From contig JAJYXM010000016.1 of assembly GCA_021796435.1 (NCBI GenBank), forward strand, positions 118,625 through 182,624: a stretch of 64,000 bases of DNA. Direction: 5' to 3'. This stretch comes from a bacterium (lineage in GTDB: Bacteria; Patescibacteriota; Patescibacteriia; 2-12-FULL-60-25). Positions 8,084-56,808 of the stretch are shown here, in pieces. Each line of letters starts with the position of its first letter. Position 1 is the first letter of the stretch. The position numbers and the translations under genes are program-made. The notes below the pieces were generated by a model. The model was given only the letters and a program-made list of their open reading frames with translations. It did not search any database and was not told the DNA's origin.

Positions 8084-8168
8084 GGGCCCGTGGCGGAATT
8101 GGTATACGCAACGGACTTAAAATCCGTCGCCGCAAGGCATGTGGGTTCGACTCCCACCGGGCCCACCA
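8084..8168 (+). tRNA. tRNA-Leu (anticodon TAA)
   Basis: Cloverleaf: acceptor GGGCCCG/CGGGCCC; anticodon stem ACGGA/TCCGT with loop CTTAAAA; long variable arm; T-loop GGTTCGACTCC; encoded CCA. Confidence 0.8.
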
Positions 8169-12724: not shown

Positions 12725-13258
12725 ATGCAACCTTCGGCGTTCGATCAGCTGTTCAGGCTCGACGGTTTTCTCTCGCTTTTGGTCGTCATGATCGTCATCA
12801 GCGCCTTCGGATACACGAAACTCGGCACACGCCATGGTTCGCTGCTCGAACTCATCTCGTTGACGCCGACCGAATGGCCCTGGTGGATCAGGCTCATGCG
12901 GGATATGGGAAAATATCTCGGTTGGTGGGGCATGACCGAGGTCTGTTTGGGGCACATCGCCGGATCCCTGCCCTTGATCTTCGGAGTGTTCATGCTGTGG
13001 TTGTCCGGAGATTTCTACGTCACTCATATGAAGGAGCGGGAAAAGCGTGGGGCGGCTGGTTTCAACCTCAGTGAAGCGCAACGAGCTTTCGAGAAGATCC
13101 AGCCGCAACTGCCACCTTTTGGCGAAGACCATAATTCCGTGGCGCTGAACGTGGACACGCTCGAATTCGTGATCGGGCGCACACTGAAGCAGACGGAGGA
13201 CTTGGCTGCAGCCAAATGGCCGGATGAGATGCACCGAATCTACGTCCGCTCGCTGTAG
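12725..13258 (+). CDS. membrane hypothetical protein
   Basis: ORF of 177 aa with TM helices. Confidence 0.45.
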   Translation: MQPSAFDQLFRLDGFLSLLVVMIVISAFGYTKLGTRHGSLLELISLTPTEWPWWIRLMRDMGKYLGWWGMTEVCLGHIAGSLPLIFGVFMLWLSGDFYVTHMKEREKRGAAGFNLSEAQRAFEKIQPQLPPFGEDHNSVALNVDTLEFVIGRTLKQTEDLAAAKWPDEMHRIYVRSL

Positions 13259-13301
13259 GCGTGGTACCATGAGTCCAGCTCATTCATTGAGGAGGCGCGA
13301 G

Positions 13302-13526
13302 ATGCCGACGACAAGGAAAGACGGAGTCCCGCTTGAGGAGCGGACGGATGGCGGGCAGTTGCCGCCGTGGCGGTTGCATCCAGCGGACATGCTGCAGTTC
13401 TTGGACGAGGGAATCCGTCCGGTCGAGGTCTCGGAGGACGACTTCGATGATCTTGAACGACACGGCGAGGACTTGGAGAAGTTCTTCGGCTGGTCATACG
13501 ACACCAACGGAGGAAGTCATGCCTAG
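13302..13526 (+). CDS. small hypothetical protein
   Basis: GGAGG then ATG. Its stop overlaps the start of the next gene (ATGCCTAG), consistent with translational coupling. GC-rich. Confidence 0.4.
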   Translation: MPTTRKDGVPLEERTDGGQLPPWRLHPADMLQFLDEGIRPVEVSEDDFDDLERHGEDLEKFFGWSYDTNGGSHA

Positions 13527-13977
13527 AGTCCCGTTGACGATCAACTTGTCGCGGCCGCGGACGCCGCTCGTCAAGTTCCATATCGGCGACAAGGTCTGCT
13601 TCGAGCGAAGCGTGGACCGGCGCGACCAGGTGGAACATCCGGATCCGTTGCCGGTCATCAACGCCGGAAGTCTCGGGACCATCCTGGAGAATGACGGCAA
13701 GAGCGTACTGGTCGGCGTGATCAAAGGACCGGACAAGAAAGTGGTCACGACCGTGCGGCTGTACGACACGGACCCGAAGGACGACGACTGCTCCACGGCA
13801 GCGATTCGGCATCTGCAATATCTCTCCAGAGATGGCCGTTGCCTTTTGAGAGCACCTGAGACCACGGGTTTCCAAGGCCGGCCTGATCCGTATCTCGACA
13901 ATCCGCCGCCGGAAAGAGTGCGGACAATACGAGACATTTGGCCGGACGAACATATCCCGTCACATGACGAGGATTGA
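13519..13977 (+). CDS. hypothetical protein
   Basis: GGAGGAAGTC ATG; 152 aa. Confidence 0.45.
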   Translation: MPRVPLTINLSRPRTPLVKFHIGDKVCFERSVDRRDQVEHPDPLPVINAGSLGTILENDGKSVLVGVIKGPDKKVVTTVRLYDTDPKDDDCSTAAIRHLQYLSRDGRCLLRAPETTGFQGRPDPYLDNPPPERVRTIRDIWPDEHIPSHDED

Positions 13978-14104
13978 GAAACACGGCAACTACTGACCCC
14001 AGAGGAGACTCTGGGGTAAAGCTTTATAGAATGGATTCCCGCCTGCGCGGGAATGACAAAAATGGAGAACCCGCCGGAGAGGGCGGGTCGAGGGGTAGGT
14101 CGGG

Positions 14105-14617
14105 CTAGCGGTTTCGGGTCAGCTCATGAAGGCGATAGGGAGGCGGCCAGCCGGCGTGATCGAGGTCCGGGAATTCGTAGCGGTAAGGTCCGGGGTCTCT
14201 GGCACGGGCGCGAGCGATGGCTTGCGAATCCACGAACGGACCGATGGTGCGCTCCTTATCGTCGACCACGAAGTGTTTCGGCTGCCAGGGGAAACGCGGC
14301 GGGCGGGGAATCTCTTCCACGATGTCAGGACGCGAGTAGAAGAAGCAGACCTTGCCGGTCTCGGCTTCCTTCTCGGTGATCTGTGCGTCGCTCAAACGTT
14401 CGTTGCGTTTGCCTTGCGACACGATCTTGCCCGGCGAACCGGCGATGAGGATCCAGGCTACGTCCGGGTCGGCGAAAGCCTGGTCGGCGAGCGGCTTGTT
14501 CATGCAGAAAGCGAGATGGTGGACGCGTTCGCGTTCAGATTCTCCGAGCGCGGTGTATTCTTCTGGCGTCAAGGTGGAGATATCGAGGGTCGGGCGATCT
14601 GAAGGTGCATTGGGCAT
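14105..14617 (-). CDS. hypothetical protein
   Basis: ORF of 170 aa. Confidence 0.45.
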   Translation of the reverse strand: MPNAPSDRPTLDISTLTPEEYTALGESERERVHHLAFCMNKPLADQAFADPDVAWILIAGSPGKIVSQGKRNERLSDAQITEKEAETGKVCFFYSRPDIVEEIPRPPRFPWQPKHFVVDDKERTIGPFVDSQAIARARARDPGPYRYEFPDLDHAGWPPPYRLHELTRNR

Positions 14618-15114
14618 GTTCTATCCCTCCGGTTGACTGGCTAGTTGGAGGTTAAAGCTGTAAATTCGAACGGTCAAGCGGATTGACGATGATCAGATTC
14701 GTGTTAAGCTTGGGCGGGTCCTTTTGTGAGGAGGTAGCTGATGAGCATCGAGTTTCCATGGTTTGCGATGTTCGCGGGGTTGCCGAAAGGGCGGAAGCCC
14801 GTGAAGCCCGAAGAGGAGGCGTCGATCGGCTCGGAAACGGGGGATCAGGCGCAGGAAAACAGCTCGGCAGCGCCGGCACAAAGGCCGACACGGGCCAAGC
14901 ATGAGGCTAAGCCGTTCCGCGTGAAGGGCGGCTCCAGGCGTCGGCGCAAGCGAAAGGCTTAGCAATAAGCTGGCCGTATAAGGATTTGCTGCCTAATCCT
15001 AAGCATGACAGTAGTGACAACTCATAACCCCGTACCGTCCTGGTGCGGGGCGTTCGTGTTTTGTACACCCCTTGCATATCATGCAAACCTTTGGTAATCT
15101 CTCCGCACAATTAA

Positions 15115-15189
15115 GCGGGTATCGTATAGTGGCTATTATGCGTCCTTGCCAAGGACGAGAGGCGGGTTCAATTCCCGCTACCCGCTCCA
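15115..15189 (+). tRNA. tRNA-Gly (anticodon GCC)
   Basis: Acceptor GCGGGTA/TACCCGC; anticodon stem CGTCC/GGACG with loop TTGCCAA; T-loop GGTTCAATTCC; encoded CCA. Confidence 0.8.
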
Positions 15190-15192
15190 GAA

Positions 15193-15221
15193 GAAAACCG
15201 ACCCATGAGGTCGGTTTTCTG
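15193..15221. terminator. Rho-independent terminator
   Basis: AAAACCGACC-CATGAG-GTCGGTTTT followed by CTGTTTG. Confidence 0.65.
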
Positions 15222-15242
15222 TTTGTCATATGGTATTCGTTG

Positions 15243-16037
15243 TCAGGTCGAGACGGCTGCACATTGGTCCCACATGAAACGGAACCAGGTACGGTAGCAA
15301 TTCGCCAGCTCCTTGTTGACCATGACGATCAATGTGATGTCGTCCGTGATGTTCTTGAGCGTCAGGCCGGAGAAGGTGACCACGTGGTCGCCGAAGATAT
15401 CGATGGCTCCGTTAGTGGAGTATCGAGGGGGAAAGAAACGATATGGTCTGCCCAAGGTCTTGAGCAGTTCGGGAGCTAAAGTCTTGACCTCGGCGTCGAA
15501 GATGTGGCGATATCTGATTTTCTTTTCCTCGGCCTGTTTCAGGAATTTCTTGATGAACGTCTGGAGTTCAGGGTCGAACCAGCCGCCTTTGGCGCCGATG
15601 AAATAGACGTCTTCCCCGACTTCCAGGATATCGCGCAGATAGTTCTTGAAACCTTCGATTCCCTTGTAGATGAAGACTTCTTCTGCAGTATTGATCCGGT
15701 TGAATTCCTGGTTAAGGGCTGGCAGGATGCTGTTGAGTTTAGTCTCCTGTTCCCAGATCAGGTCGGAGAGTTTGCTTGGTTCGACGGGCGCGAAAAGGTT
15801 TCCTTTCGGGTCACTGATCTGGTAGATCAAGCCTTTCTTAAGGAGTTTGGGGATGAGGTCATAGATGTTGCGTTTGTGGACGCCGATCTTGAGCGAGATG
15901 TCGGGCACGGAGGCGGGTCCGAGTTCCAGAAGACCTAGGTATACTTTTGCTTCGTTGGGTGAGAGGCCAAGGTCCTCAAGTATTTCACGATACATATTTT
16001 TGAGTAGTGGTGGTATTTGCCACTCACGATATATCAT
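15243..16037 (-). CDS. TrmB-family transcriptional regulator
   Basis: N-terminal winged HTH (LSPNEAKVYLGLLELGPASVPDISLKIGVHKRNIYDLIPKLLKKGLI) plus a C-terminal TrmB-like domain. Confidence 0.6.
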   Translation of the reverse strand: MIYREWQIPPLLKNMYREILEDLGLSPNEAKVYLGLLELGPASVPDISLKIGVHKRNIYDLIPKLLKKGLIYQISDPKGNLFAPVEPSKLSDLIWEQETKLNSILPALNQEFNRINTAEEVFIYKGIEGFKNYLRDILEVGEDVYFIGAKGGWFDPELQTFIKKFLKQAEEKKIRYRHIFDAEVKTLAPELLKTLGRPYRFFPPRYSTNGAIDIFGDHVVTFSGLTLKNITDDITLIVMVNKELANCYRTWFRFMWDQCAAVST

Positions 16038-16059
16038 CTAGACTGGGTGTCAAGTAAGT

Positions 16060-17613
16060 ATGTCGACGCAAACGTTATTGACGCTGACACCCGCTCAAGG
16101 CTATGGCCTGCTGTTTTTGTATGGGCTTTTCATGGTGGCGATCACTTGGCTTTTCGCGAGATGGAAGGCGTATCGTTCGATCCGTGGGTTTCTGGTGGCA
16201 GAAAGGAATGTGCCGTGGTGGCTGGGGGCGGCCAGCATAGCGGCGTCCTGGGTCTGGGCACCGGCTCTGTTCGTATCGGTGCAGATAGCTTATCAAAAAG
16301 GATTGCCGGGTATTTTTTGGTTCACTTTCCCGAACATCGTCGCCTTGCTGATCTATGTATTTCTCGCGCCACGGATCAGGGAAAAACTGCCGCACGGCTT
16401 TACCTTGCCCCAGTGGATCCTATATCGCCTTAAAAGCAAGCGGGTCCATAGGGTATATCTTTTCCCGTACTTCTTTTACCAACTCATGGCCGTATCGGTG
16501 CAGCTCTTCGCGGGCGGCAGCCTTGTCTCGTTGCTTACGGGCATCCCTTTGTTCAGCGCGATGTCGTTCATGGCCGTGACGGTGCTGGTTTATGCTTTCA
16601 TCTCCGGGTTGGAATCGTCATTCGTCACGGATCTCGTGCAATTCCTGCTGTTGATCATCGGTGTGGTCTTGGTCGTGCCTTGGGCCATAACTTCAGGCGG
16701 CGGATGGGCTGCGGTCGTGCAGGGGTCGGGAGGAGTGACGGGTGAGTTCAAGGATATCTTCGATCCTGGTGTCGCTTTCTCGTTCGGAATCGTGACGGCT
16801 ATCGGATTGATTTCCGGAGCGATCTCCGATCAGCAATATTGGCAGCGTGCGTTCTCGATAAAGAAGAGCAATCTAGTCCCGTCGTTCATCTTCGGCGCAA
16901 TCATCTTCGGGATAGTGCCGTTGGCGTTATCCGCCCTCGGTTTTTTGGCGGCGAACAGCGGTTTGGGTATAAGTCTGCCGCCAGGTGCGGATGTTTCGAT
17001 GATAGGGGTAGTAACCGTCAGCAGGCTTTTGCCTGCATGGGTGATGGCGATATTCGTAGTGATGCTGTTGAGCGCGTTGTATTCGACTTTGGATTCCGGT
17101 GTCGTGGCGGCGAGTTCGTTGTACGTCACCGACGTCATGCGATATACGGATCAGGAAAGGCAGATCTTGGAGAAGCTGGATGAAGGCGGACAGCTCGAAC
17201 AGGCTGAGGCGGAGATCGGCAAGGCATTGGATGTGCGAGGCGTGAGGAATGCGCGCTGGGCCATGCTCGGCATCACACTGTGCGGCTTCATCGTGGCTTT
17301 GGCGGCAAAGTATATACCGCATTTCGGTCTGGAGCAGCTGTGGTGGATCTTCAATACTGTCGCGGCATGCGTCGTCGTGCCGACGGTGTTGAGCCTGTAT
17401 TGGAAAGGATTGGATGAGCGTGGCGTGTTTTGGGGCGTGCTCGTCGCATTCGTCGTCGGGATGCCGCTATTCATCTACAGCAACATGATGAACAGGCCGG
17501 CTTGGATAGTCGGTGTGTCGTTAGGAATAGTCGGCGTCAGCCTAGCGTCTTGTCTCGCGTTATCGAAAAGCAAGAGAAAGGGTTTGGAGCTAAGCGGCGC
17601 GACGGTCGCATAA
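16060..17613 (+). CDS. sodium:solute symporter (SSS) family transporter
   Basis: 517-aa polytopic protein with SSF-like N-terminal region. Confidence 0.75.
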   Translation: MSTQTLLTLTPAQGYGLLFLYGLFMVAITWLFARWKAYRSIRGFLVAERNVPWWLGAASIAASWVWAPALFVSVQIAYQKGLPGIFWFTFPNIVALLIYVFLAPRIREKLPHGFTLPQWILYRLKSKRVHRVYLFPYFFYQLMAVSVQLFAGGSLVSLLTGIPLFSAMSFMAVTVLVYAFISGLESSFVTDLVQFLLLIIGVVLVVPWAITSGGGWAAVVQGSGGVTGEFKDIFDPGVAFSFGIVTAIGLISGAISDQQYWQRAFSIKKSNLVPSFIFGAIIFGIVPLALSALGFLAANSGLGISLPPGADVSMIGVVTVSRLLPAWVMAIFVVMLLSALYSTLDSGVVAASSLYVTDVMRYTDQERQILEKLDEGGQLEQAEAEIGKALDVRGVRNARWAMLGITLCGFIVALAAKYIPHFGLEQLWWIFNTVAACVVVPTVLSLYWKGLDERGVFWGVLVAFVVGMPLFIYSNMMNRPAWIVGVSLGIVGVSLASCLALSKSKRKGLELSGATVA

Positions 17614-17618
17614 AAAGA

Positions 17619-17672
17619 GAAACCGTCCCGATGGACAACCACAGAGTACGTGGTGAGTCGGGACGGCGATTT
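17619..17672 (-). terminator. terminator for the RT gene; copy 1 of a repeated palindromic element
   Basis: GCCGTCCCGA...TCGGGACGG hairpin followed on the minus strand by TTTCTCTTTTT. Confidence 0.6.
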
Positions 17673-18747
17673 AGGGACGGGGTCGGGTGAGAGGAACGAG
17701 GCCTTGGGCTACGGCTGCGCGGTAACGCGCGTAGGGCAGCTTGAGTTGCGAAGGTATGGAGCCGCAGTACACGGAGCGGACCCAGCCGAGCACGCCCTCG
17801 ACCTCTTCTTGGCTGCGTTCGCCACGGACGGCGTGATGCAGCAAGGAGCGGTATTGCCCCAGGCGCTTTCGTGAGAGCCGTACGTTGATGTAACGGTTCC
17901 AGGTTCCACCGCGCCACGAACGGATCGGTACCTTGAGTCCGTTGCCGTTCACGGATAGGCCGGTGACGCTGACTGAGCCATGCTTCAGATCCAATCGTCG
18001 TGTCTTGCGAGGATTGATGACGAAGCCGTACTCCGCGATGGTGCGCAGGAATTCTGGTACGGCCAGGTCGAGGAGCTCGGCGTAGTCGGAGGAGAGGCAT
18101 AGATCGTCGGCGTAACGCGTGTAGACGAGCCGCGGCCAGACGCCATCAGCGATCTTGATCCAGGCGTTCTGGATACGATAGTCCTGTTGGAGACGGCGGA
18201 TGGTTTGTTTCAGGGCTAGATCCAGATCGCGACAGGCGTAGTTCAGGAGTACGGGCGAGCTGGCTGCACCTTGGGGCAGCGAACCTTGGAAGGTCGTGAT
18301 CGCAGTCAACAGCTCGGCTTCTTCGGCGTTGAATCCGTAGCGTACAAGCAACTCGCGGAGGCGGCGGGCGTCGATCTGACCGAAAGCATCCTTGAGGTCG
18401 CAGATGAAGAAGTCGAAGCTCACGCGATGACGCAGTGCGTTGCTCATGGGCGAATGGCCAGGGACGAAACCGTGGACCGTGCGTGTCAGTCGGTCGTGCG
18501 CCAACTCACGAGGCAGGTGACGGCTTAAGACCGTGGCGATCGCCGATTGGGCTTTGGCCAGATCAGATGGAGCTTCGACGAGCTGGCGTGTGCCGCCGCT
18601 TTTCTTACGTCGGGTGAAGATGCGATAGTTTTCGCGCGACTGATATGCCGCTAGCAAGTCCTCCGGTGACAGCCGGAAGAGCGCGCAGAGCGCCGGCGTG
18701 ATCCCTTTCAGCGGATCGGCCGGGAAACGCAGTTCCTGCTGTTCCAT
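17671..18747 (-). CDS. retron-type reverse transcriptase
   Basis: RT motifs RRKKSGGTRQL, QGAASSPVLLNYA and YTRYADDL. Also the retron-characteristic NAxxH (SNALRH) and VTG (VSVTGLSVNG) motifs. Start taken at MEQQELRF; the in-frame upstream extension is probably leader RNA. Confidence 0.8.
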   Translation of the reverse strand: MEQQELRFPADPLKGITPALCALFRLSPEDLLAAYQSRENYRIFTRRKKSGGTRQLVEAPSDLAKAQSAIATVLSRHLPRELAHDRLTRTVHGFVPGHSPMSNALRHRVSFDFFICDLKDAFGQIDARRLRELLVRYGFNAEEAELLTAITTFQGSLPQGAASSPVLLNYACRDLDLALKQTIRRLQQDYRIQNAWIKIADGVWPRLVYTRYADDLCLSSDYAELLDLAVPEFLRTIAEYGFVINPRKTRRLDLKHGSVSVTGLSVNGNGLKVPIRSWRGGTWNRYINVRLSRKRLGQYRSLLHHAVRGERSQEEVEGVLGWVRSVYCGSIPSQLKLPYARYRAAVAQGLVPLTRPRP

Positions 18748-18965
18748 GATGACCTCGTTTTCAAAGTGCGGTTGACCGCGCCCCGCGAGTTGCGGGGTCG
18801 CGGCCAACCGAATCCACCAGAGCGCCTCTGTGCCGCATGCTGCATGCGAGCGGTTTGACGGCACGTCGCAACGACGCACCGGTGAGGGTTTCTAGGGCCA
18901 TCTTTACCTTTCCTTACGGATCGGCTCGGGGGGCCTATCCCCACAACTAGCCAGCTGGTGGACCT
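18748..18965 (-). ncRNA. candidate retron non-coding RNA (msr/msd) leader
   Basis: About 200 nt lie between a promoter-like TTGACG-N18-TAAAGT (around 18985-18955, minus strand) and the RT ATG. It contains a strong hairpin CCGCGACCCCGC-AACTC-GCGGGGCGCGG at 18769-18797 and the palindrome GCATGCAGCATGC. No a1/a2 repeats were confirmed. Confidence 0.3.
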
Positions 18966-19004
18966 GGGCAGACTTTAACCGTCAGAGAGACGTAACGTCA
19001 AATA

Positions 19005-19045
19005 AAAAGAAGAGCCGTCCCGATGGGCATCGGGACGGCTGTGGG
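19005..19045 (-). terminator. terminator; copy 2 of the repeated palindromic element
   Basis: CCGTCCCGATG-CCC-ATCGGGACGG followed on the minus strand by CTCTTCTTTTTATT. Confidence 0.6.
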
Positions 19046-19067
19046 GGCAGGGAAGGAGCGGGTGAGG

Positions 19068-19262
19068 TCACGTTGGATCCAGACGGATCAGTGCCGGACG
19101 CCACCTTTCGTCGGCAGGATCTTCGTCGATGCGACCATCCCGTGAGTCGGATCCGTGACTGTCTGCAGGTGTTGGCGGGGCATGGAGCAGTTGCCAGTCA
19201 GTGGCGAAACCCTCGTTTCCGCCGAGATCGATGTTCAGGCGCGGGACGATGCGACGTTGCAT
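19068..19262 (-). CDS. small Pro/Asp-rich protein, member of a tandem paralog set
   Basis: The ATG is preceded by the conserved junction ...CTGAAGAGGTGAACC. 64 aa. Confidence 0.4.
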   Translation of the reverse strand: MQRRIVPRLNIDLGGNEGFATDWQLLHAPPTPADSHGSDSRDGRIDEDPADERWRPALIRLDPT

Positions 19263-19265
19263 GGT

Positions 19266-19661
19266 TCACCTCTTCAGGGCGGATCGTCGGGTTTGGCGGC
19301 GCAGGTTCAGGAAGTACTGCATAGCCCTGGAGATATCCGCAGCCGTGTAGACCGTGCCTGGAGGGTCGATGGGACGAATGCCTTTGCAGGCCTCGGCTAG
19401 GGAGATCTGCTTTTGCGGTTGTCGTCCCAGTGGAGCGGCGCTGTTATCGGGGTCGGGAGGCTGGCTCACTTGAGTCGGACCCCAGTCTTCGAGTACGCCG
19501 GCTTCGGTGCCGGGTTCCGGAGGAGCGCATTGAGCACGTTCATACGCTTCATCGTCCATGGTGGTCTGGCCAATGCTGCGACCCTCGCAGGGCGACCGGC
19601 GGATGCGACCATCGTCGGGCGGAACCCACTTGGGTTCGTCGTCTTTCCAGTTTTCGCTCAT
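19266..19661 (-). CDS. small Pro-rich protein, member of a tandem paralog set
   Basis: The junction GAAGAGGTGGACC-ATG supplies an SD. Shares the motif GQTTMDDEAYERAQ with the 68-aa ORF. 131 aa. Confidence 0.45.
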   Translation of the reverse strand: MSENWKDDEPKWVPPDDGRIRRSPCEGRSIGQTTMDDEAYERAQCAPPEPGTEAGVLEDWGPTQVSQPPDPDNSAAPLGRQPQKQISLAEACKGIRPIDPPGTVYTAADISRAMQYFLNLRRQTRRSALKR

Positions 19662-19672
19662 GGTCCACCTCT

Positions 19673-20020
19673 TCAGAGCGGATCCTTGGGGCCGCCGACG
19701 CGTTCGGGAAGCCAGGGTTTGTCAGTGTCAGGATGCGGGATCCGGGGCGGGCAGAGCCGTGGCTGGGGAGGCCAGGGGCGCAGGATCTGCTCTTCGACGT
19801 ACGCGGCATTCGGAGACGAGTCGGTGGAGTCAGCATCTGTATCGACGATCGAGGAACAGGAGGGTGCCAACTCGTTGGGATCCGTGTCGAAGCGTCGTTC
19901 ACCGGTCGGGTCGGGATCGACGAAAGGCGGACTAGTAGGCGCCAGTTCGTTGGGATTGGCGTCGGGTCGGCGCGGCGGCGGTGGACCCCAGGGATGAATC
20001 AGCTTGTCGGCGCGGCTCAT
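19673..20020 (-). CDS. small Pro-rich protein, member of a tandem paralog set
   Basis: AAGGAGA is 9 nt before the ATG. Start and stop overlap the upstream gene as ATGA. 115 aa. Confidence 0.45.
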   Translation of the reverse strand: MSRADKLIHPWGPPPPRRPDANPNELAPTSPPFVDPDPTGERRFDTDPNELAPSCSSIVDTDADSTDSSPNAAYVEEQILRPWPPQPRLCPPRIPHPDTDKPWLPERVGGPKDPL

Positions 20021-20223
20021 GGCTCATTCTCCTTATCTGGAACACTTTGGTCGCGTAGGACTCCGGGAATAGCCAGACCGGCTTGAGCGTCCTCTTGCGC
20101 CTTGGCATAGTCTGCATCCGACATGGTCGTTTCGCCGTACTGGCGCGGACGGGGCGGATCGGGTTCGATGCGCGCGAATGGACTCGGAGTCCAGTCGATT
20201 TTGGGGATCAGTGGGTGGCTCAT
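20017..20223 (-). CDS. small protein
   Basis: 68 aa; GETTMSDADYAKAQ motif; translationally coupled. Confidence 0.4.
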   Translation of the reverse strand: MSHPLIPKIDWTPSPFARIEPDPPRPRQYGETTMSDADYAKAQEDAQAGLAIPGVLRDQSVPDKENEP

Positions 20224-20435
20224 TTTTCTTCGATGACCTCCGAAAGGTCTACACGGGGCGTTGTCCAGTCGCCGACCAGACCGCTGTGGAATGAGCAGGG
20301 ATTCTGATCTTCTGCCCAGTGTCGGAGTGCAGCATCCAGATGGCGAACGCGTTCTTCGGGCGTTCGGTTCGAACCCAGAAGTCGGCCGAACAGAGATTGT
20401 ATTGCGCTTGGCTGTTTGGATTGGTTGTCGGGCAT
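20220..20435 (-). CDS. small protein
   Basis: 71 aa; start and stop overlap neighbouring genes. Confidence 0.35.
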   Translation of the reverse strand: MPDNQSKQPSAIQSLFGRLLGSNRTPEERVRHLDAALRHWAEDQNPCSFHSGLVGDWTTPRVDLSEVIEEK

Positions 20436-20450
20436 CGTGTGAACCTCCGT

Positions 20451-20639
20451 TCAGCGGTAGATGACTCGGGTGTGGGCTCGGGCTTTGGAGCGGGCGAGGA
20501 AGGCGTGGTGTTCTTCCGCAGCTTTGCGGAGTTGCTGCCTGGTTACAGCTTCGGCCCGCTCTTGTCCTTCGGGCGAGTCGAGTTCAGCGCGGATCCGATC
20601 GAATTCCGCCTGGATTTTCGTTTTCGTCTCTTCGTCCAT
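20451..20639 (-). CDS. small charged helical protein
   Basis: 62 aa; first ORF of the operon. Confidence 0.35.
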   Translation of the reverse strand: MDEETKTKIQAEFDRIRAELDSPEGQERAEAVTRQQLRKAAEEHHAFLARSKARAHTRVIYR

Positions 20640-20769
20640 GGAAACCTCATTGGGAAGGAGCAGCTAACGCTTAGACGGTAACAAGGTGAGCATCATTAAT
20701 CAAATTCAACAGGAGAGATTCTTCGCGGATGACTGGATTCCCCGGTCAAGCCGTGGAATGACAGATGAG

Positions 20770-20820
20770 AAAGCCGTCCCGGAGGTCACCACGTAGGACA
20801 CGGCGAGTCGGGACGGCAGT
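20770..20820 (-). terminator. terminator; copy 3 of the repeated palindromic element
   Basis: GCCGTCCCGG...TCGGGACGGC, about 80% identical to copy 1 and followed by a T-rich stretch on the minus strand. Confidence 0.5.
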
Positions 20821-20829
20821 GGAGAGGGG

Positions 20830-21936
20830 TTAGTGCTCGGGTGGGGCGAAGACGCCGCACCAGTCGAATTTGCGGAAGCGGCGGCGGACGGCGAGGACTT
20901 CGGCTACGCCGATGATCTCCCGCCTGACCGATATTACCTTGCTCAGTAAGTAGGATGTGACGTCGGGGTGATCCGGTGCATTTTCCTTGTCGAAGCGGAA
21001 TTCGCCTTTGACTTCTTCGCCGTTCTTGAGTCGGAGCTTGGCCCAGTAATCCCCGTAGGGATTCTTGCCCGGATCGAAACGACCGTGGAACCGGCTTCCA
21101 TCCGCGAATTCGATGCTGAATTTCGTTAGTTTGCCGGCAAGGAGCTGCTCGAATTGTCGGATTGCCTCGTGGATCCAGAGCTGATCGCTGCGCAGCGGTC
21201 GGGGTTCTGGGTCGTTGCTGCCTTCGTGCCAGATGTAGCCGTCATCGAAGAATACGGCGCGTCTTGGCGGTTTCTCGTCGTAGCAGCCGCTTGAGTGCAG
21301 GTCGCGTTCGAGGCGTACGCCGTGGCATTCGACGATGTGCTGTACGTCGTTACGCGGGTTCACCACGAATTTGCGGCCGAAGCGGTAGACCGGATCCTCC
21401 ATGACACAGTCCGGGAACACGATGTCGCCCGCGAGGTGCTGGTCGCCGACAGCATAGAACCAGGGCGTCTGGAGTCCGCAGTAAACCGTGCGCAGAAAAC
21501 CCGGGCATGCGGCAAGCTTGTCTTCGCGGCCCTTGACGCGGAAGACCTTCTGCACCGCGGCGAGCAGGTGCTCGAGCGAAGCGAACTCCGCGAAGCTGGT
21601 GCCGTCGTCGCTCCAGTCTTCATGTAGCACGAAACCGCAGCGGCCGTCGGGTGCATCCTTGATCTCCAACGCCTCGACAAAGCCCTGGATCTCGCTTTCG
21701 CAATCGCTGCAGCCGTATTTGTGCTGTACGATCTCGAAGCGCGTGTGCATACGGTAGGCGCCATGCACGACGTTCTTGACGAGGCCGGTGGTCGGCGGTT
21801 TGATTTCGCCGAAGAGCTTGAGCGCCTCGAGGGCCTTTTCGCGGTCTTCGCGCCGACAGGTGAAATGGACCAGCCAACCTTCGGCGGTCTTGCCTTCAAC
21901 ATCCACTGGATCCATCAGCCGATGAGAGTCTGACAT
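20830..21936 (-). CDS. hypothetical protein, orphan in this window
   Basis: 368-aa ORF with strong coding character (Cys/His/Trp-rich) and no motif I recognise. It lies upstream on the same strand as the small-ORF operon and the RT. Confidence 0.55.
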   Translation of the reverse strand: MSDSHRLMDPVDVEGKTAEGWLVHFTCRREDREKALEALKLFGEIKPPTTGLVKNVVHGAYRMHTRFEIVQHKYGCSDCESEIQGFVEALEIKDAPDGRCGFVLHEDWSDDGTSFAEFASLEHLLAAVQKVFRVKGREDKLAACPGFLRTVYCGLQTPWFYAVGDQHLAGDIVFPDCVMEDPVYRFGRKFVVNPRNDVQHIVECHGVRLERDLHSSGCYDEKPPRRAVFFDDGYIWHEGSNDPEPRPLRSDQLWIHEAIRQFEQLLAGKLTKFSIEFADGSRFHGRFDPGKNPYGDYWAKLRLKNGEEVKGEFRFDKENAPDHPDVTSYLLSKVISVRREIIGVAEVLAVRRRFRKFDWCGVFAPPEH

Positions 21937-22050
21937 GGGACGTCTCCTTGAAAGGGCACTGCCAGACCTTAACTGATGACGGAGGTGAAGGCAAACGGAG
22001 GAAAACCCTAATCTTGATTAGCGTCGCCCCGCGAAGTAATCTATTTATCT

Positions 22051-22836
22051 ATGATTAAGGCAGAAAACCTGACTAAGAAGTACGACGAATTCACAGCCGT
22101 AGACAGCATCAACTTCGAGGTCGAGAAAGGTGAGATATTCGCGTTTCTCGGGCCGAATGGAGCGGGCAAGACGACGACCATCAAGATGCTGACGACGTTG
22201 ACCAAGCCGACTTCCGGCACGGTGCAACTGAACGGCTTCAATCCGGTCGAATCACCGGATGACGCCCGTAAGTCTTTCGGCATCGTGTTCCAGGACCAAA
22301 GCCTGGATGACGAATTGACGGCTTGGGAAAACATGGAGTTCCACGGCGTGCTGTATGGAGTCGAGAAGAAGTTGCGTCGCGAACGCATCGAACAGCTGAT
22401 GAAGTTCGTTGAATTGTGGGACCGTAAGAACGATTTGGTCAAGACTTTTTCCGGCGGCATGAAACGGCGCCTGGAGATAGCGCGTGGGTTGCTGCATCAT
22501 CCCAAGATATTCTTCTTGGACGAGCCGACGCTCGGCTTGGATCCGCAGACGCGCAACCACATGTGGGAGTACATAAAGAAATTGAGGCAGGAAGAGGGGA
22601 CGACCATATTCTTCACCACCCATTATATGGAGGAGGCGGAGAAGAATTCCGACCGTATAGCCATCATCGACCACGGCAAGATCGTGGCGCGGGGAACGGC
22701 CGGCGAATTGAAGCAGCAGACCAGCACTGATTCGCTCGAAGCGGCGTTTTTGTCTTTGACCGGAAAAGATATCCGTGATGAGCATGCTACCGGCGCGGAT
22801 CATATGAGGATGAGGCGCCGCATGTGGCACAGATAA
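22051..22836 (+). CDS. ABC transporter ATP-binding protein
   Basis: Walker A GPNGAGKTTTIKML; ABC signature LSGGMKRRLEIA; Walker B IFFLDEPT. Confidence 0.9.
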   Translation: MIKAENLTKKYDEFTAVDSINFEVEKGEIFAFLGPNGAGKTTTIKMLTTLTKPTSGTVQLNGFNPVESPDDARKSFGIVFQDQSLDDELTAWENMEFHGVLYGVEKKLRRERIEQLMKFVELWDRKNDLVKTFSGGMKRRLEIARGLLHHPKIFFLDEPTLGLDPQTRNHMWEYIKKLRQEEGTTIFFTTHYMEEAEKNSDRIAIIDHGKIVARGTAGELKQQTSTDSLEAAFLSLTGKDIRDEHATGADHMRMRRRMWHR

Positions 22837-22840
22837 AAAT

Positions 22841-23587
22841 ATGCAAACTATCTACATACTTTGGTTAAGGCAACTCAAACGATATTCGCGTTCCAGGGCC
22901 CGTATCATCGGTTCCTTGGCGCAGCCGTTGCTTTTCCTGGTGGCTTTGGGTTTCGGTTTCGGACCGATATACCAGAAGGCAGGAGGCGGCAATTACATCC
23001 AGTTCCTGGCCCCGGGCATCATCGGGATGAGCGTATTGTTCACGGCGGTATTCACGGGGATCGAGATAATCTGGGACAGGCAGTTCGGGTTCCTCAAAGA
23101 GACCATGGTGGCGCCTGTCACGAGGCTGAAGATAATGTTCGGACGGACCCTGGGAGGTGCGACAGTAGCGACTATCCAGGGTGTCGTCGTATTCCTATTG
23201 TCCTTGATCGCCGGGTTCAGGCCAGTTTCGTGGCTTGGGTTGTTCCCTGCCATGTTGGTGATGTTTTTGACGGCGTTGCTGTTCACCGCATTGGGGACGG
23301 CGATAGCCTCTACGTTGGATGACATGCAAGGTTTCCAATTGATCATGAACTTCGTCATCATGCCGGTATTCTTCTTGTCGGGAGCCTTGTTCCCGCTGGA
23401 TGGATTGCCGCCGGTGATAATGCTGGTCGCGCGTTTCGATCCGTTGTCATACGGCATCGACGGTCTGCGTTGGGCGCTGATCGGGTTGACGCATTTCGGA
23501 TTCGGACAGGACTTGGCGATTTTGACCGCAGTGACCGCAGTGCTTTTGGCCGTAGGCAGTTATCTGTTCTCGAAGATAGAGATTTAA
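22841..23587 (+). CDS. ABC-2 type transporter permease
   Basis: Six TM helices of 248 aa immediately downstream of the ATPase. Confidence 0.75.
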   Translation: MQTIYILWLRQLKRYSRSRARIIGSLAQPLLFLVALGFGFGPIYQKAGGGNYIQFLAPGIIGMSVLFTAVFTGIEIIWDRQFGFLKETMVAPVTRLKIMFGRTLGGATVATIQGVVVFLLSLIAGFRPVSWLGLFPAMLVMFLTALLFTALGTAIASTLDDMQGFQLIMNFVIMPVFFLSGALFPLDGLPPVIMLVARFDPLSYGIDGLRWALIGLTHFGFGQDLAILTAVTAVLLAVGSYLFSKIEI

Positions 23588-31848: not shown

Positions 31849-32457
31849 TTATAGAATCTTAATTATTCCAATAATTGCATCTGATTTCTTATCTTGATTT
31901 TTAAAAACAAAACCATCCTTCTTTATTTCTTTCTCTCTTCCTTTGTATCTATGTTCAACTCTTTCTAATTGAGATAAATCATAAACGATGGCTATATCAA
32001 CTTTTACAGGTTTGTTCCTGTCAGCTATTGGCCAAAAATAAAATGGCTCGAGAAAATGTTTAAAATATTCATCATTCTTTTTGACTTTGAAATCCAATGC
32101 AAAAAAGTCGATATGCTTGTTATCAAGATTTTCATATCTGTCACCCTTCCGCTTTGGATTATATCTGTCGTATCCTAATTTTTTTATTATTTTGATTAAA
32201 TCATCTATTGTTTTTCCTTTGTGTTCATCTGAACCTAAAACTCTAATAGCGACTTTTTTGCCTAGAAAATGAGATTTTAAACATTTATCAATTTTTTTAC
32301 CTATCTTTTCAAAATCAGGAACATTATCCCAATATATTTTTGGAATTTTGATGTTGTACCAAGGTGTTCCTGCATAATCCATTTTATTTTTGGTGTTTTT
32401 GAAATTTTTAAGTTTATATTCAGGAACACTGACTTGATAGATTGGAATTTTAGCCAT
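31849..32457 (-). CDS. hypothetical protein (AT-rich, Lys-rich)
   Basis: 202-aa ORF in a markedly AT-rich segment. Confidence 0.4.
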   Translation of the reverse strand: MAKIPIYQVSVPEYKLKNFKNTKNKMDYAGTPWYNIKIPKIYWDNVPDFEKIGKKIDKCLKSHFLGKKVAIRVLGSDEHKGKTIDDLIKIIKKLGYDRYNPKRKGDRYENLDNKHIDFFALDFKVKKNDEYFKHFLEPFYFWPIADRNKPVKVDIAIVYDLSQLERVEHRYKGREKEIKKDGFVFKNQDKKSDAIIGIIKIL

Positions 32458-32637
32458 AGTTATCTTAAAGATGGTTTTGTTTTATAAGCTTTTACATCAA
32501 AGTGCCCAAAGAAAAATTGTGTATAACTCGTTTTTGTGCGCAGTGATTGTGGTTTAGGCTGCGATATTGGCATGTTAGACGATGTGTGTTAGCTAGTAAA
32601 TAAGGTGCACGTTCGTAATCCATGTTTATTCTTAGCC

Positions 32638-33462
32638 ATGTTTTTTATGTTGGAGAGATGTCTGCAGAAGACGGCTGACGAAATACGTTTGCGCAATTAT
32701 AGTCGCAAGACCATTAGCGCGTATTTGGCTTGTATAAAGGATTTTTTGTCTAAGAATCCGAATTGCTGTGAACATTGTGATGAGGAAGTAATTCGTCGTT
32801 TTTTGTTGGACAAACATGAAAAGGATTATTCGCCACAAACCGTGAATTTATACTTGAATGCAATCAAATATTATTATCTTGATGTTTTGCGTCTGGGCGT
32901 AAAAATCAATATCAGATTCGCCAAGCGATCAAAGAGGCTGCCTGTCGTGCTGTCTCGTGGTGAGATAGCACGCTTGCTTTCGACCATCAGGAACAACAAA
33001 CATAAGGTTTTGGTGGCCTTAGCTTATGGCGCTGGTATGCGCGTCAGCGAAATAGTCAGGTTGAGGGTCGGCGACGTGTTGTTGGACGAGCTTGTTTTGC
33101 ATATCAAACAAGCCAAGGGGGCCAAAGATAGGATTACAGTAATGCCGGAAAGATTGGCAGATGAGCTGCGTGCTCTGATGGCCGGAAAAGCTCGGGAAGA
33201 TTTTGTTTTTTCCAGCGAACGCGGCGGTCGACTTTCTGAGAGGACGGCGCAGGTTGTGTTCGAACGTGCATTAGTATCAGCCGGGATAGGCAAAACCGCA
33301 ACTTTCCACTCGTTACGTCATAGTTTTGCTACGCATTTACTGGAGAATGGGGTGGATGTGCGTTATGTGCAGGAACTTTTGGGACATCAGAACATACGCA
33401 CGACCCAAATCTACACGCATGTGACTGATCCGGGCATCAGGGGGATAAAAAGTCCGTTTTGA
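32638..33462 (+). CDS. tyrosine site-specific recombinase (XerC/D/integrase family)
   Basis: Catalytic pattern R...HSLRHSFATHLL...R..LLGH....T.IYTHV. Confidence 0.75.
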   Translation: MFFMLERCLQKTADEIRLRNYSRKTISAYLACIKDFLSKNPNCCEHCDEEVIRRFLLDKHEKDYSPQTVNLYLNAIKYYYLDVLRLGVKINIRFAKRSKRLPVVLSRGEIARLLSTIRNNKHKVLVALAYGAGMRVSEIVRLRVGDVLLDELVLHIKQAKGAKDRITVMPERLADELRALMAGKAREDFVFSSERGGRLSERTAQVVFERALVSAGIGKTATFHSLRHSFATHLLENGVDVRYVQELLGHQNIRTTQIYTHVTDPGIRGIKSPF

Positions 33463-48941: not shown

Positions 48942-51173
48942 ATGACAAGGAAACTCTTTTTCGTAGTCTTCGGTCTGTCCACGCTCATCAATTGCGGGCC
49001 GCAATACGATCCGGAAAACGGAGCGCCTGAAAGCACACAGGATCCGCTCCAGATCGACCAGCAGACGGGTGTGCCGTACGCCAACACCTACCAGTATCCG
49101 ATCCAGGGCTTCAACGCATCGGACTTCGGCTTCGGTTTCGGCAGCATGAACGACCTGATCTGCATGAGCCGCGACAAGGATGGGCAGTGCTTGGCCTTCG
49201 GCTACCACCTGGCGCACGATTCACTCGTCGGACGTACGCCTTACGGCAAGGAAGTCCTGGCGCCGGCCGACGGCATCGTGCGCGTCACGACGGACCTCAC
49301 CTTCAGGGGCTATGGTTCCACCAGCAGCGGCAACAGCAACTACTACGGTTGCGTGCTCGTGCTCGAGCATGAATTCCCTGACGGCAGTCCGTTCACGACT
49401 TTGCTTGGGCACGTGCAGTGCGAGTCGACCACGAACTATGATCCGGCGGCGCGCATCGGCAATCCGGCGCGTGGGACGATCGTACGGCGCGGACAGTACG
49501 TCGGTCATGTAGGACACTATTGGTACGGCGCCGGCAAGACCACGGATTGGCACCACGTCCATTGGGGTAACCGTAAGGGCGCGTTCACGGCGACGAGCTA
49601 TACGCGTTCCGGCGTAGGCGTCTGGGTGCGCGGCTATGCTGCACGGAGCGAGTTCAGCAAGGATCCGCAGACCGGGAAGCTGGTGCACCCCGAATGGTTC
49701 GACCCGATCGATACGGTCAAGAAGTACGGCGATCCGGCCCTTACGCCGGATGTCGGAGTACGCCATCACCCGCCGGGCTCGATGCTGGAGGATCAGCAAG
49801 GGACGTTCTGGCTGGTGACGAATGAGGCGGAAATCGCCAAGCTGCCGACGGCAGTCATCGCATCCGACCACTATGACACTTCATTGGCGGCACGTGCGTC
49901 GCAGGACGAACTCGATTGCTACGCGCATGCGGCGGACATCAAATCGTTCGGCAGCGTCACTCTTTACCAACGGCCGGGTACGCACACGGTGGTCATGGCG
50001 TATGACGACAAGAAAGAACGCTACGACGTGATCCGCCAGGAAGCGCTCTATTCCTGGGGTTATAACTTCCAGGGACTTACGACGGATGCGTCCAAGATCC
50101 AGAAGTGTGAGAACGCATATGCAGCGCGCGGATTCCGCCAGCTGCGTCCGGGCTCGCTCATCAAGGCTGACGAAGAGAGTGAGGTCTCCATCGTCACGCC
50201 GTGGCAGACGCGACGGCCGATCGGCACGGGTGAGATCTACGAGAAGCTCGGTTATTCTTGGGACCGCATCATGTCCGTGCCATATGACGTCATCGACGCG
50301 GTGGCCGGGGTGCGTGAGTCCAATATCGTGGATTACGACTCCATCTTCGCCTGTGCCTTGCCGGCACCTTGTCCATCAGACGGTATGTGCGGCGGCGGCG
50401 ATGATCCGGAAGACTACGTCGATGATGTCGGAGATGTGTCGGAGCAGGACGCGGGCGCATCGACGGAGGGCGGGACGGAACAGCTTGACTCAGGCGCGCC
50501 AGCCGAGGCCTCTGCGACCACGGAATCATGCAACGGCTTGGACGACGACGGCAACGGCCAGATCGATGAAATCTTCATGTGCCGTCTCGGGGCAGTCGGC
50601 GGCGGCTGCGTGACTTCCTGCGGCAGCGCCGGATATCTGGTGTGCACGGCGCCGGCCTGTAGCTGGGGCGAGTGCCACAGCTATCCCGAGGATTGCAGCA
50701 ATACGATCGACGACGACTGCAACGGTCTGGTCGATTGCGCGGATCCTGCGTGTGCCAAAGACGCAAACTGCCAAACTGAAGCAGATGCCGGCATGCTGGC
50801 GGGACAGATTCGATTCATCTATGACGGGCCAGCGAGTCCGGGGAGCATCAAGCTCATGGCTTGGTGGCAGCCTCCGGAGACTGAGCCTCGGATCTGGGAC
50901 GAGGTGACGGATTGCCTGGATGCTGTGCCGGATGATGGCCGTTTCGACTGTACCTTCTTGGTACCGTCGGGTACGGGCCCCCTTGAATTCCAGGTGAATC
51001 TGCCTGATGGCAGCTACTGGGGTGACGAATCGTGCGACCAGATGGGCGGTTGTGGTTCGACCATCGGCACGACCAAGGTCTATGGCTCGGCAGGTGAGTT
51101 GGAGATCAAGATGGTCCCCAATAACGACCAAGGCCAGCCTTACTATAACGGTCATATCGACTCGGTTCCGTGA
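48942..51173 (+). CDS. large secreted protein with M23-like metallopeptidase region and C-terminal Cys-rich repeats
   Basis: Lipobox-like N-terminus; HxxxD...HxH-like motifs; repeated CNGLDDDGNG/CNGLVDC-type Cys/Asp repeats; GC-rich. Confidence 0.5.
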   Translation: MTRKLFFVVFGLSTLINCGPQYDPENGAPESTQDPLQIDQQTGVPYANTYQYPIQGFNASDFGFGFGSMNDLICMSRDKDGQCLAFGYHLAHDSLVGRTPYGKEVLAPADGIVRVTTDLTFRGYGSTSSGNSNYYGCVLVLEHEFPDGSPFTTLLGHVQCESTTNYDPAARIGNPARGTIVRRGQYVGHVGHYWYGAGKTTDWHHVHWGNRKGAFTATSYTRSGVGVWVRGYAARSEFSKDPQTGKLVHPEWFDPIDTVKKYGDPALTPDVGVRHHPPGSMLEDQQGTFWLVTNEAEIAKLPTAVIASDHYDTSLAARASQDELDCYAHAADIKSFGSVTLYQRPGTHTVVMAYDDKKERYDVIRQEALYSWGYNFQGLTTDASKIQKCENAYAARGFRQLRPGSLIKADEESEVSIVTPWQTRRPIGTGEIYEKLGYSWDRIMSVPYDVIDAVAGVRESNIVDYDSIFACALPAPCPSDGMCGGGDDPEDYVDDVGDVSEQDAGASTEGGTEQLDSGAPAEASATTESCNGLDDDGNGQIDEIFMCRLGAVGGGCVTSCGSAGYLVCTAPACSWGECHSYPEDCSNTIDDDCNGLVDCADPACAKDANCQTEADAGMLAGQIRFIYDGPASPGSIKLMAWWQPPETEPRIWDEVTDCLDAVPDDGRFDCTFLVPSGTGPLEFQVNLPDGSYWGDESCDQMGGCGSTIGTTKVYGSAGELEIKMVPNNDQGQPYYNGHIDSVP

Positions 51174-55540: not shown

Positions 55541-56032
55541 GCGGGGAGGATACAGCAAAGGAGAGTTTTTTCATTTGTTCCGGAACTCGCTTGTTTTTTG
55601 TCATCCCGCACTCCCGCCCGCAACGCCTTGCTTGCATGGCGGGCGCGGTGATGCGGGATCTGGATCCAGGGTCTTTGCCCGGGACGACAGGCTGAGCAAA
55701 AGAAAACAAAAAAATCACCCCGATGGATTCATCTCGCGATGGATCATCGGGGTGATTTATTCCCGGACCGGAAGCTGCAAAGAGCTGCCACGCCAAGTAA
55801 ACGGCTGTACCCATGTGAGGAGAGAGAATCCCTCAATGAAGAGGGAAACCACGGATATTACCATTAGAAGCGTACAACACTTCGCAGCTCCCGGGCCGGG
55901 AATCCGCATACGGTAGGTGGCGCTACATTCTTTGTCAAGATGAAAACTTCGCATCCTTCTTCGGTCAACCGTCAGTATGGCGGATCGAAGGAGGTGTCCG
56001 ACCGGTAAGGGAGCCCGGTCGGAAGAGTCGTC

Positions 56033-56740
56033 CTAGTATTGGAGCGGATCGGAGGCTTCGACGAAGCGCAACAGCTTGTCGATGCTGATCCACTTGTCGT
56101 CGCAAGTGGCGTGCGCTTTGCGCAGGGTCTCTTCGGTACTTGCGCAGCGGGAGAAGCCGGCGGGAAAGCCGGAACCGTCGGTGCGCTTGAAGAGCGGGAT
56201 CCAGCCACGCACGGAGTATGGGCGCAGGTAGGCCTCGTCATCGTGCTTGTAGAACGGCGCCGGGATGATGGCGAAGATTTCGCGGTCCAGACGCATCTCA
56301 GGACGGCGCAAGATGATGGACAGGATGAAAGCCAGGATGAAGTGGGCCCAAGCCCGGAAGTCGTGCCACGAAGCAGGCGTCGCGATATCACGCGGACGAT
56401 ACAGGATGAACACCACCGTGGGGTGCAGATCGATAGTCCGGATGAGCGGGCGCAAGTTGGCGCTTCCGCGGAGTGCCGGACTCGAGATGCGCTCCTCGTC
56501 GGGAAGAGCGATACCTTCTTCGTCCGCAGACGCTACATCGGACGAAGTCGGAGGACTGCTCTTGCGCAGGAAGAGCTCTGAGGCATCGATGAGGACGCCG
56601 TCCGATTGCCTCGCGCGCGATTTTTGAGTCACGTTCCCACTCTTCATCGTACTGCTCCAGACGAATCCTAGGACGTTGGAAATGAAAAGATCCCTTAAGT
56701 CCTTCATAGCATGATGTTGCCCTTTTGGCAAGGTATGCAC
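56033..56740 (-). CDS. hypothetical protein
   Basis: ORF in a GC-rich minus-strand cluster. Confidence 0.4.
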   Translation of the reverse strand: MHTLPKGQHHAMKDLRDLFISNVLGFVWSSTMKSGNVTQKSRARQSDGVLIDASELFLRKSSPPTSSDVASADEEGIALPDEERISSPALRGSANLRPLIRTIDLHPTVVFILYRPRDIATPASWHDFRAWAHFILAFILSIILRRPEMRLDREIFAIIPAPFYKHDDEAYLRPYSVRGWIPLFKRTDGSGFPAGFSRCASTEETLRKAHATCDDKWISIDKLLRFVEASDPLQY

Positions 56741-56808
56741 CTATGGAAGATTTAAGGGATCCCGCAAAGCCGAGAGATTGAGCTTTGCGGAACGGTTGTG
56801 AGACGGGG

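Follow-up and report, generated by a model that had tools for sequence, protein, structure and literature searches.

The window analyzed here, a stretch of 64,000 nt from contig JAJYXM010000016.1 (assembly GCA_021796435.1, forward-strand positions 118,625 to 182,624), carries on its minus strand a reverse transcriptase (RT) gene with a structured leader directly upstream. A preliminary description had read the two as a retron, that is, a retron-type RT with an msr/msd template. The RT is retron-type by all the tests that were run, namely hidden Markov models (HMMs), PDB sequences and a confident AlphaFold model, and the leader, judged by comparison of homologous loci, is a conserved non-coding RNA (ncRNA) with the canonical retron layout.

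The motifs reported for the RT in the preliminary description were all located in the 358-amino-acid (aa) open reading frame (ORF): KKSGGTR (residues 48-54), SNALRH with the NAxxH signature (102-107), QGAASSP (159-165), YADD (212-215) and VSVTGLSVNG (259-268), in which VTG corresponds to V261-T262-G263. H107 of NAxxH and G263 of VTG are invariant, and A104 nearly so, in an alignment of 17 sequences of the clade; this H and this G are the most conserved retron signatures according to Mestre et al. (PMC7736814). A mechanical ORF list had extended the gene to a GTG at 18879 (17671-18879, 402 aa), and we rejected this start because the closest homologues begin at, and align from, the methionine encoded by the ATG at 18747, a GAGG ribosome-binding site (RBS) precedes this ATG, and the sequence upstream acts as a structured, covarying RNA. 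Relative to the sister strain L008, the RT gene has 47 synonymous and 25 nonsynonymous codon differences, a ratio that indicates purifying selection.

The retron-type reading held in every comparison. Retron RT models filled the best 25 of 42 PADLOC matches (80-133 bits), those for types XII, XI, III-A, II-A and I-C being at the top (123-133 bits). The NCBIfam models for retron St85, TIR-retron and Ec67 scored 116, 113 and 112 bits, against 28 bits for the group II RT/maturase model (TIGR04416), and Pfam gave RVT_1 alone, with no extra domain. All seven PDB sequence matches were retron RTs (Ec86, Kva2, Ec67 and Ec83), with E = 6.5e-16 for Ec86. The AlphaFold model, for which 17 family sequences were aligned, had a mean predicted local distance difference test score (pLDDT) of 91.4 and a predicted template modeling score (pTM) of 0.87. 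The top 12 structures retrieved with it from the PDB by Foldseek were retron RTs (Eco2, Ec86, Eco7, Ec78, type I-A and Ec83; E values of 1e-18 to 1e-16 for Eco2 and Ec86), and DRT2 (rank 13), a group II intron RT, DRT9 (rank 21) and G2L4 ranked behind them. Grouping with RTs of group II introns or diversity-generating retroelements (DGRs), which had been named beforehand as evidence against a retron, was not seen in the HMM and structure comparisons. A group II intron was rejected as the source of the RT, given 28 bits for TIGR04416 against a cut-off of 300 and no group II intron Rfam match in the window. A DGR was likewise rejected, as no long repeat (template or variable repeat) touches the RT flanks within 13000-23000 and the RT matches retrons by HMM and structure.

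To place the RT among its relatives, a word-indexed search was combined with an exhaustive profile search that covered 1.84 billion representatives. The former gave two clusters approximately 43% identical to the RT, the next relatives being at about 30%, and the latter gave a limited family of full-length proteins (P0130-P0148; 290-340 aa, 140-307 bits) with a common C-terminal LPxxLxxPYxxY segment. In a neighbor-joining (NJ) tree of 18 clade sequences, which are cluster representatives, and 12 retron references, the clade was recovered in 99 of 100 bootstraps, with a simple method and a limited reference set (type XI, type XII, Ec67-family, St85-family and the nearest unnamed matches). The PADLOC scores are evenly spread over types XII, XI, III-A, II-A and I-C. 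As the RT falls below the type-specific NCBIfam cut-offs and belongs to a separate clade, its sequence places it as a retron-family member outside every typed family tested. A motif scan of the GTDB species representatives found no member of the RT family, and a metagenome scan added the L004 contig and one 5'-truncated contig, nothing more. More distant relatives (P0137, P0138 and P0142) have two tandem RT domains per protein (719 aa, and a 584-aa fragment); one protein of 1381 aa has in addition a long N-terminal region that is kinase-like by eye.

The upstream regions of RT relatives were taken from public assemblies and compared with the leader. The same order of elements was detected in seven lineages (the window and L008; L004, L009 and L002; L092; L097; L098; L093; and L094), of which the L097 locus is 5'-truncated; L003 contributes the 3' part alone, to the L004/L009/L002 lineage. 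From 5' to 3', the elements are a TTGACR promoter, the 5' arm (a2) of a long-range stem (P1), G residues, a first stem-loop (SL-a), a hairpin (CH), a variable segment, GCAC..GCGC, the 3' arm of P1 (a1) and a GC-rich hairpin. A canonical retron is laid out as a2, branching G, msr stem-loops, variable msd and a1 (PMC7736814). The a1/a2 inverted repeats that the preliminary description expected from folding of the leader are thus present as a long-range stem conserved in homologous loci, and the msr/msd-like fold, whose absence from such loci it would have counted against a retron, is kept in the seven lineages.

The leader fold is more stable than expected from shuffled sequences (z = -4.05; 0 of 200 shuffles equally stable). 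The leaders of the window and L008 differ at 7 of 224 nt (96.9% identical) and the RT genes at 83 of 1077 nt, mostly synonymously (92.3% identical), so the leader is about six times more conserved than the synonymous sites of the RT, which argues that the ncRNA is more constrained than silent sites. RNAalifold, run on an unsupervised alignment, recovered P1, CH and the terminal hairpin, with 13 compensatory pairs in total, one of them in P1. The MAFFT alignment that included L092 was misaligned, and P1 was scored on a manual in-register alignment; in it, compensatory changes were found at 4 core pairs across four GC-rich lineages and 0.12% of shuffles paired equally, values that are indicative only because this alignment was made by hand and fitted. 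P1 is 13 bp long in L093 and L094, both AT-rich, with at least 4 compensatory pairs by eye. The a2 arm ends in AG followed by C in three of the four GC-rich lineages, and C(U)GG or GGYUA comes next in all lineages; by its position in the sequence, the candidate branching G would be G18955 or the GG at 18951-18950.

A stem-loop at the SL-a position was also detected in L004, L092 and L098. CH is paired in 50 of 50 cells over five lineages, with both partners altered in 4 pairs, and none of 500 shuffles scored as high. A CH covariance model gave one significant match in the 64-kb window, at 34.8 bits (runner-up 13.7 bits); the score is high by construction because the window copy is in the training set, and the informative part is that there is no second significant site. 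Within the msr, CH is the proposed element for recognition by the RT. The stretch from CH to a1 ranges from 38 nt in the window to approximately 170 nt in L092 and L097, holds 1-2 hairpins and cannot be aligned across lineages. Such a variable segment between msr-like stem-loops and a1 fits an msd, with the template role assigned provisionally. The palindrome pointed out in the preliminary description lies inside it.

The terminal hairpin follows a1 directly. The preliminary description had seen here a strong bulged hairpin of 11 bp and assigned it to the msr/msd template. The hairpin is present (18810-18769), but its length is 12 + 6 bp, and we rejected it as an msd because it is not enclosed by the a2/a1 stem and its counterparts in five other lineages resemble terminators. 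An intrinsic terminator was called by the scan at the equivalent position in L092, L004, L093, L094 and L098, and L003 and L097 have the same hairpin and U-tract by eye. The hairpin of the window itself was not called by the scan, and no internal promoter was seen between it and the RT; its stem covaries among the window, L004 and L003. In L093 (5940-5968) and L094 (5942-5970), the ncRNA terminator is followed, ahead of the RT, by a strong sigma70-like promoter, that of L093 (TTGACA-17-TATGAT) agreeing with the consensus at 11 of 12 positions, so the ncRNA there is an independent small-RNA gene and the RT a separate unit. In the window, the hairpin may be a leaky terminator or a stabilizing hairpin, the RT presumably being made by read-through. 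A 10-bp alternative pairing was also noticed on the minus strand between 18948-18939 (AGUUGUGGGG, the 5' strand of the junction and SL-a) and 18797-18788 (CCCCGCAACU, the apical part of the hairpin). It would compete with formation of the terminal hairpin, and we treat it as a chance antiterminator-type pairing because it is not conserved in L008, where it amounts to 7 bp.

The promoter-like element that had been placed about 200 nt before the ATG was found as TTGACG-18-TAAAGT, 225 nt upstream of the RT start. Shuffled sequence also yields one such sigma70-like site, which makes the match weak by itself; a TTGACR -35 element is present at the equivalent place in L008, L004, L002, L092 and L098.

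Table 1 Features of the RT-ncRNA locus in window coordinates.
Feature	Position	Strand	Basis
Terminator T1, 3' of the RT gene; stem 17640-17621 plus T-tract, call spans 17640-17612	17605..17667	-	Terminator scan, homologous elements
Retron-type RT gene (358 aa, stop codon within the coordinates)	17671..18747	-	ORF, motifs, HMM, PDB, AlphaFold/Foldseek
RBS of the RT gene, GAGG	18753..18756	-	Direct sequence reading
Retron-type ncRNA gene, ~197 nt, msr/msd-like; 5' end placed from the promoter and 3' end from the hairpin	18769..18965	-	Fold, conservation
GC-rich hairpin of 18 bp (12 + 6 bp, 1-nt bulge) directly 3' of a1; weak U-tract CACUUUGAAAAC	18769..18810	-	Folds
a1, 3' arm of P1, CUGGUGGAUU	18811..18820	-	Covariation, RNAalifold
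Variable region of 38 nt, candidate template of the msd; conserved GCAC..GCGC immediately 5' of a1	18821..18858	-	Position; putative template role
Palindromic hairpin GCAUGC-AGC-AUGC in the msd-like segment, DNA GCATGCAGCATGC	18847..18835	-	Sequence
CH, 10-bp hairpin with YUG loop, CGGUGCGUCG-UUG-CGACGUGCCG	18859..18881	-	Covariation
SL-a, first msr-like stem-loop, GGGG...CCC(U)C	18884..18942	-	Minimum free energy folds, partly RNAalifold
a2, 5' arm of long-range stem P1, GGUCCACCAG; pairs with 18820-18811	18955..18964	-	RNAalifold, manual alignment
Sigma70-like promoter of the ncRNA; -35 TTGACG 19001-18996, -10 TAAAGT 18977-18972, 18-nt spacer	18972..19001	-	Consensus scan; putative function
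Terminator T2, ends the small-ORF operon upstream, insulating the ncRNA promoter; call spans 19040-19005	18997..19040	-	Terminator scan, homologous elements

Characterized retrons are tripartite, comprising an RT, an ncRNA and a toxin. In the window, the RT-ncRNA pair has six small ORFs and a 368-aa ORF (20830-21936) upstream and a convergent SSF transporter gene downstream. The other island ORFs and the neighbors in L004, L008 and L009 had no Pfam, PADLOC, PHROG or PDB sequence match, and no neighboring gene is common to the RT loci of the five lineages examined, which include the window, L004, L092 and L093/L094. The 368-aa ORF is absent from L008, which keeps the RT and the ncRNA and has an unrelated 251-aa ORF instead; a single-sequence AlphaFold model of the 368-aa protein was unusable (pLDDT 44). 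The small ORFs form an operon at 19068-20639 on the minus strand (62, 71, 68, 115, 131 and 64 aa, with no Pfam, PADLOC or PHROG match), in which the 131-aa and 115-aa ORFs appear to be paralogous and share a 43-nt repeat where they start (19260-19302 and 19659-19701).

The RT-ncRNA pair stands alone between housekeeping genes in other lineages, that is, between a hibernation factor gene and secA in L092 and between glmM and murI in L093 and L094-L096. In L004 and L009 it lies between relA/spoT and topA, with small ORFs that vary between strains. The interval between the RT and topA has two charged ORFs in L004 (11000-12190; 153 and 162 aa) and one in L009 (1303-2170; 213 aa), all without a family match; the RTs of both strains belong to a single cluster at 90% identity. 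The L093 and L094 loci are syntenic, with identities of 63% for the RT, 67% for GlmM and 71% for MurI. This synteny, together with an RT divergence close to that of GlmM and MurI, points to vertical inheritance of these RTs under a constraint similar to that of housekeeping genes, as far as sequence comparison goes.

The window locus looks like a conflict or variable locus by its sequence, unlike the stable glmM-murI members. The island (17605-22000) has a GC content of 0.605, above the 0.537 of the window and the 0.51-0.55 of the flanking genes, so its GC richness, noted in the preliminary description, holds locally, and other GC-rich patches also occur in the window. Other composition outliers lie at 32001-33000, 49001-51000 and 56001-58000 (one patch with GC 0.34 and two with GC 0.61-0.63). 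The island genes are 84-92% identical between the window and L008 (7240-11100 in the latter) and differ in content, compared with 98-99% identity for the flanks, and no part of the island is better conserved between the sister strains than the ncRNA (97%). Terminator-like elements homologous to one another (GCCGTCCCGA...TCGGGACGGYT followed by a T-tract) were found at three sites, 17605-17667, 18997-19040 and 20772-20817, one closing each of the three transcription units of the island. The 9-mer TCGGGACGG is confined to them, with no other exact copy in the 64 kb. In L008, the counterpart of the third element is at a different junction, which suggests, from sequence positions, cassette shuffling at these elements. 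A tRNA-Gly(GCC) gene (15115-15189, plus strand) lies approximately 2.4 kb from the island edge, with genes for a TrmB-family regulator and the SSF transporter in between, and a tRNA-Leu(TAA) gene (8084-8168, plus strand) lies farther away; there was no sign of either tRNA as an integration site.

The hosts of three lineages of the RT clade are Candidate Phyla Radiation (CPR) bacteria based on the relatives of their housekeeping proteins. The best match to the LeuRS of the window, at 77% identity, comes from a Candidatus Uhrbacteria metagenome-assembled genome, with the next matches at 59-67% and mostly from Uhrbacteria or other Patescibacteria. The window host is thus Uhrbacteria-like, with a tiny genome, and the RT protein is on record on a 1.52-Mb contig. 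A Ca. Uhrbacteria protein falls in the same cluster as the GlmM of L094, and nearly all named relatives of the L092 SecA come from Patescibacteria or Uhrbacteria. Approximately 80% of the known CPR RTs are DGRs (PMC8632793). In the literature searched, we found no account of retrons in CPR bacteria, the co-mentions of retron and CPR or Patescibacteria being unrelated.

Stand-alone (msr-msd)-RT cassettes, and the idea that they are domesticated or act with effectors in trans, have already been described (PMC7736814), the examples being, within RT clade 2, the branch of Retron-Eco5 (Ec107), and clade 11, which is restricted to Actinobacteria (Mestre et al. 2020, PMC7736814). The window locus resembles these in its RT with NAxxH and VTG, its contiguous upstream ncRNA, the lack of a specifically associated effector, and signs of vertical inheritance or taxonomic restriction. 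It differs in its host (Patescibacteria/Uhrbacteria), in its own RT clade (in a tree built without clade 2 and clade 11 references), in an ncRNA without Rfam match, in the terminator-like 3' hairpin and in the separate RT promoter of two lineages. Retron-Eco1 (Ec86, type II-A) and Retron-Eco2 (Ec67, type I-C), the best sequence and structure matches, have the same motif set and the same RNA layout of a2, G, msr stem-loops, msd and a1; however, RT identity is 21-25%, and the NDT or Toprim effector is neither fused nor adjacent here. RTs of types XI and XII (RT-protease and RT-TIR) were the top PADLOC matches (133 bits, covering the N-terminal half), and type XI-like RTs that lack the protease, are comparable in size and have upstream ncRNAs predicted de novo are known from Bacteroidota and Bacillota (SPIRE; bioRxiv 10.64898/2026.05.14.725207). 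In contrast to these lineages, the window locus has no fused protease or TIR, no WYL or DnaB_C neighbor and a Patescibacteria host, and its RT separates from the type XI and XII references in the NJ tree.

Taken together, the locus is probably a self-contained, effector-less retron of an untyped lineage, composed of promoter, ncRNA, leaky hairpin or terminator, RT and terminator. The module is flanked by terminators, and related loci hold the RT and the ncRNA only, between housekeeping genes. The ncRNA would be transcribed from its own promoter, for which a promoter-like site is present, and the a2/a1 stem of 10-13 bp, as its covariation indicates, closes a multi-branched domain. The RT, translated from read-through transcripts, may bind SL-a and CH, prime on the 2'-OH of the conserved G just 3' of a2, and copy 18858-18821 into a short multicopy single-stranded DNA (msDNA) with a GCATGC hairpin. 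The hairpin between a1 and the RT start probably sets a high ratio of ncRNA to RT. We infer both msDNA synthesis and a biological role of the module; for the clade, this role could be that of a sensor with a trans or other partner, or a domesticated non-defence function.

Several observations weigh against this interpretation. The RT missed the type-specific NCBIfam cut-offs (116 against 235 bits for St85, 113 against 600 for TIR and 112 against 450 for Ec67), and Rfam gave no retron, msr or RT-associated family in 17400-20900 (E ≤ 10), the outcome being the same in five related loci (E ≤ 1). The P1 covariation is based on 4-5 distinct sequences in a manual, structure-fitted alignment, and the covariance model found no CH hairpin in the AT-rich L093 and L094. 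The candidate msd of the window is very short, 38 nt with a hairpin of about 6 bp, and all the priming steps are proposed by analogy. The order of P1-closed domain, terminator and gene is also the one classically seen in riboswitches and attenuators. Finally, the anti-phage defence role that defines characterized retrons, and that the preliminary description had extended to this locus, is unsupported because no effector was found, either here or conserved in the related loci examined.

The riboswitch-like layout raises the alternative that the upstream RNA is a cis-regulatory leader, a riboswitch or attenuator that controls read-through into the RT instead of serving as its template. In five lineages, the P1-closed multi-branched domain is followed by the terminator-like hairpin and then the RBS, the GC-rich lineages have no visible internal promoter before the RT, and in the window the junction/SL-a 5' strand can pair over 10 bp with the terminator-like hairpin. 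We consider this reading distinctly improbable, given that the alternative pairing is weaker in L008, that the promoter behind the terminator makes the RNA a separate transcription unit in L093 and L094, and that a pre-a1 segment of 38 to ~170 nt is typical of an msd and not of ligand-binding aptamers. Moreover, retron RTs require a cognate a1/a2 RNA, and the locus has no other candidate. The regulatory and template roles are not mutually exclusive. A non-retron defence RT, with DRT2-like rolling-circle cDNA synthesis that makes a new gene or DRT9-like homopolymer synthesis, seems extremely improbable. A solo RT without effector, preceded by a structured ncRNA closed by a long-range stem, is as found in DRT2, and both DRT2 and DRT9 were among the structural matches; however, the 12 structures above them and all the PADLOC, NCBIfam and PDB sequence matches shown are retron RTs, and the RT has the retron-specific NAxxH and VTG. 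In three lineages, each frame of the whole P1-enclosed unit, on either strand, contains 2-10 stops, and the unit could thus not give rise to a never-ending ORF.

The locus might instead be a complete anti-phage retron, with its effector encoded by an island gene (the 20830-21936 ORF or the 19068-20639 operon) or elsewhere in the genome. Effectors in trans have been raised for orphan retrons by Mestre et al. (PMC7736814), and the GC-rich island with its strong divergence and gene gain and loss between the sister strains, the homologous terminator common to its three transcription units, and the different genes adjoining the RT in L004 and L009 are in line with such a system. We nevertheless regard it as unlikely: the sister strain retains the RT and the ncRNA and lacks the 368-aa gene, the window, L004, L092 and L093/L094 have no neighbor in common, the neighbors searched gave no PADLOC, Pfam or PHROG match, and the synteny and housekeeping-like RT divergence of L093 and L094 are unlike those of a mobile defence gene. 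Beyond the effector-less retron at the locus itself, we put forward only tentatively, and with some doubt, that the clade is a Patescibacteria-restricted, largely vertically inherited and domesticated effector-less retron, whose ncRNA is an independently terminated small-RNA gene and whose msDNA or RT-RNA complex has a host function other than abortive infection or is the whole immune module.

The retention of an RT and an ncRNA alone in some lineages is an acknowledged open question in the retron field (PMC7736814). The locus defines a coherent effector-less retron lineage in CPR bacteria, an unusual host group. Its compact, conserved ncRNA, with P1, CH, variable template, terminator and candidate branch G, together with the YADD of the RT, makes msDNA synthesis directly testable, and the short natural msd could interest users of retron-based editing. 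The presence of syntenic, housekeeping-like members on the one hand and of the fast-changing island of the window on the other bears on whether orphan retrons are defence or domesticated genes. If the domesticated reading is true, the clade would be a tractable natural example of the role of an orphan retron.

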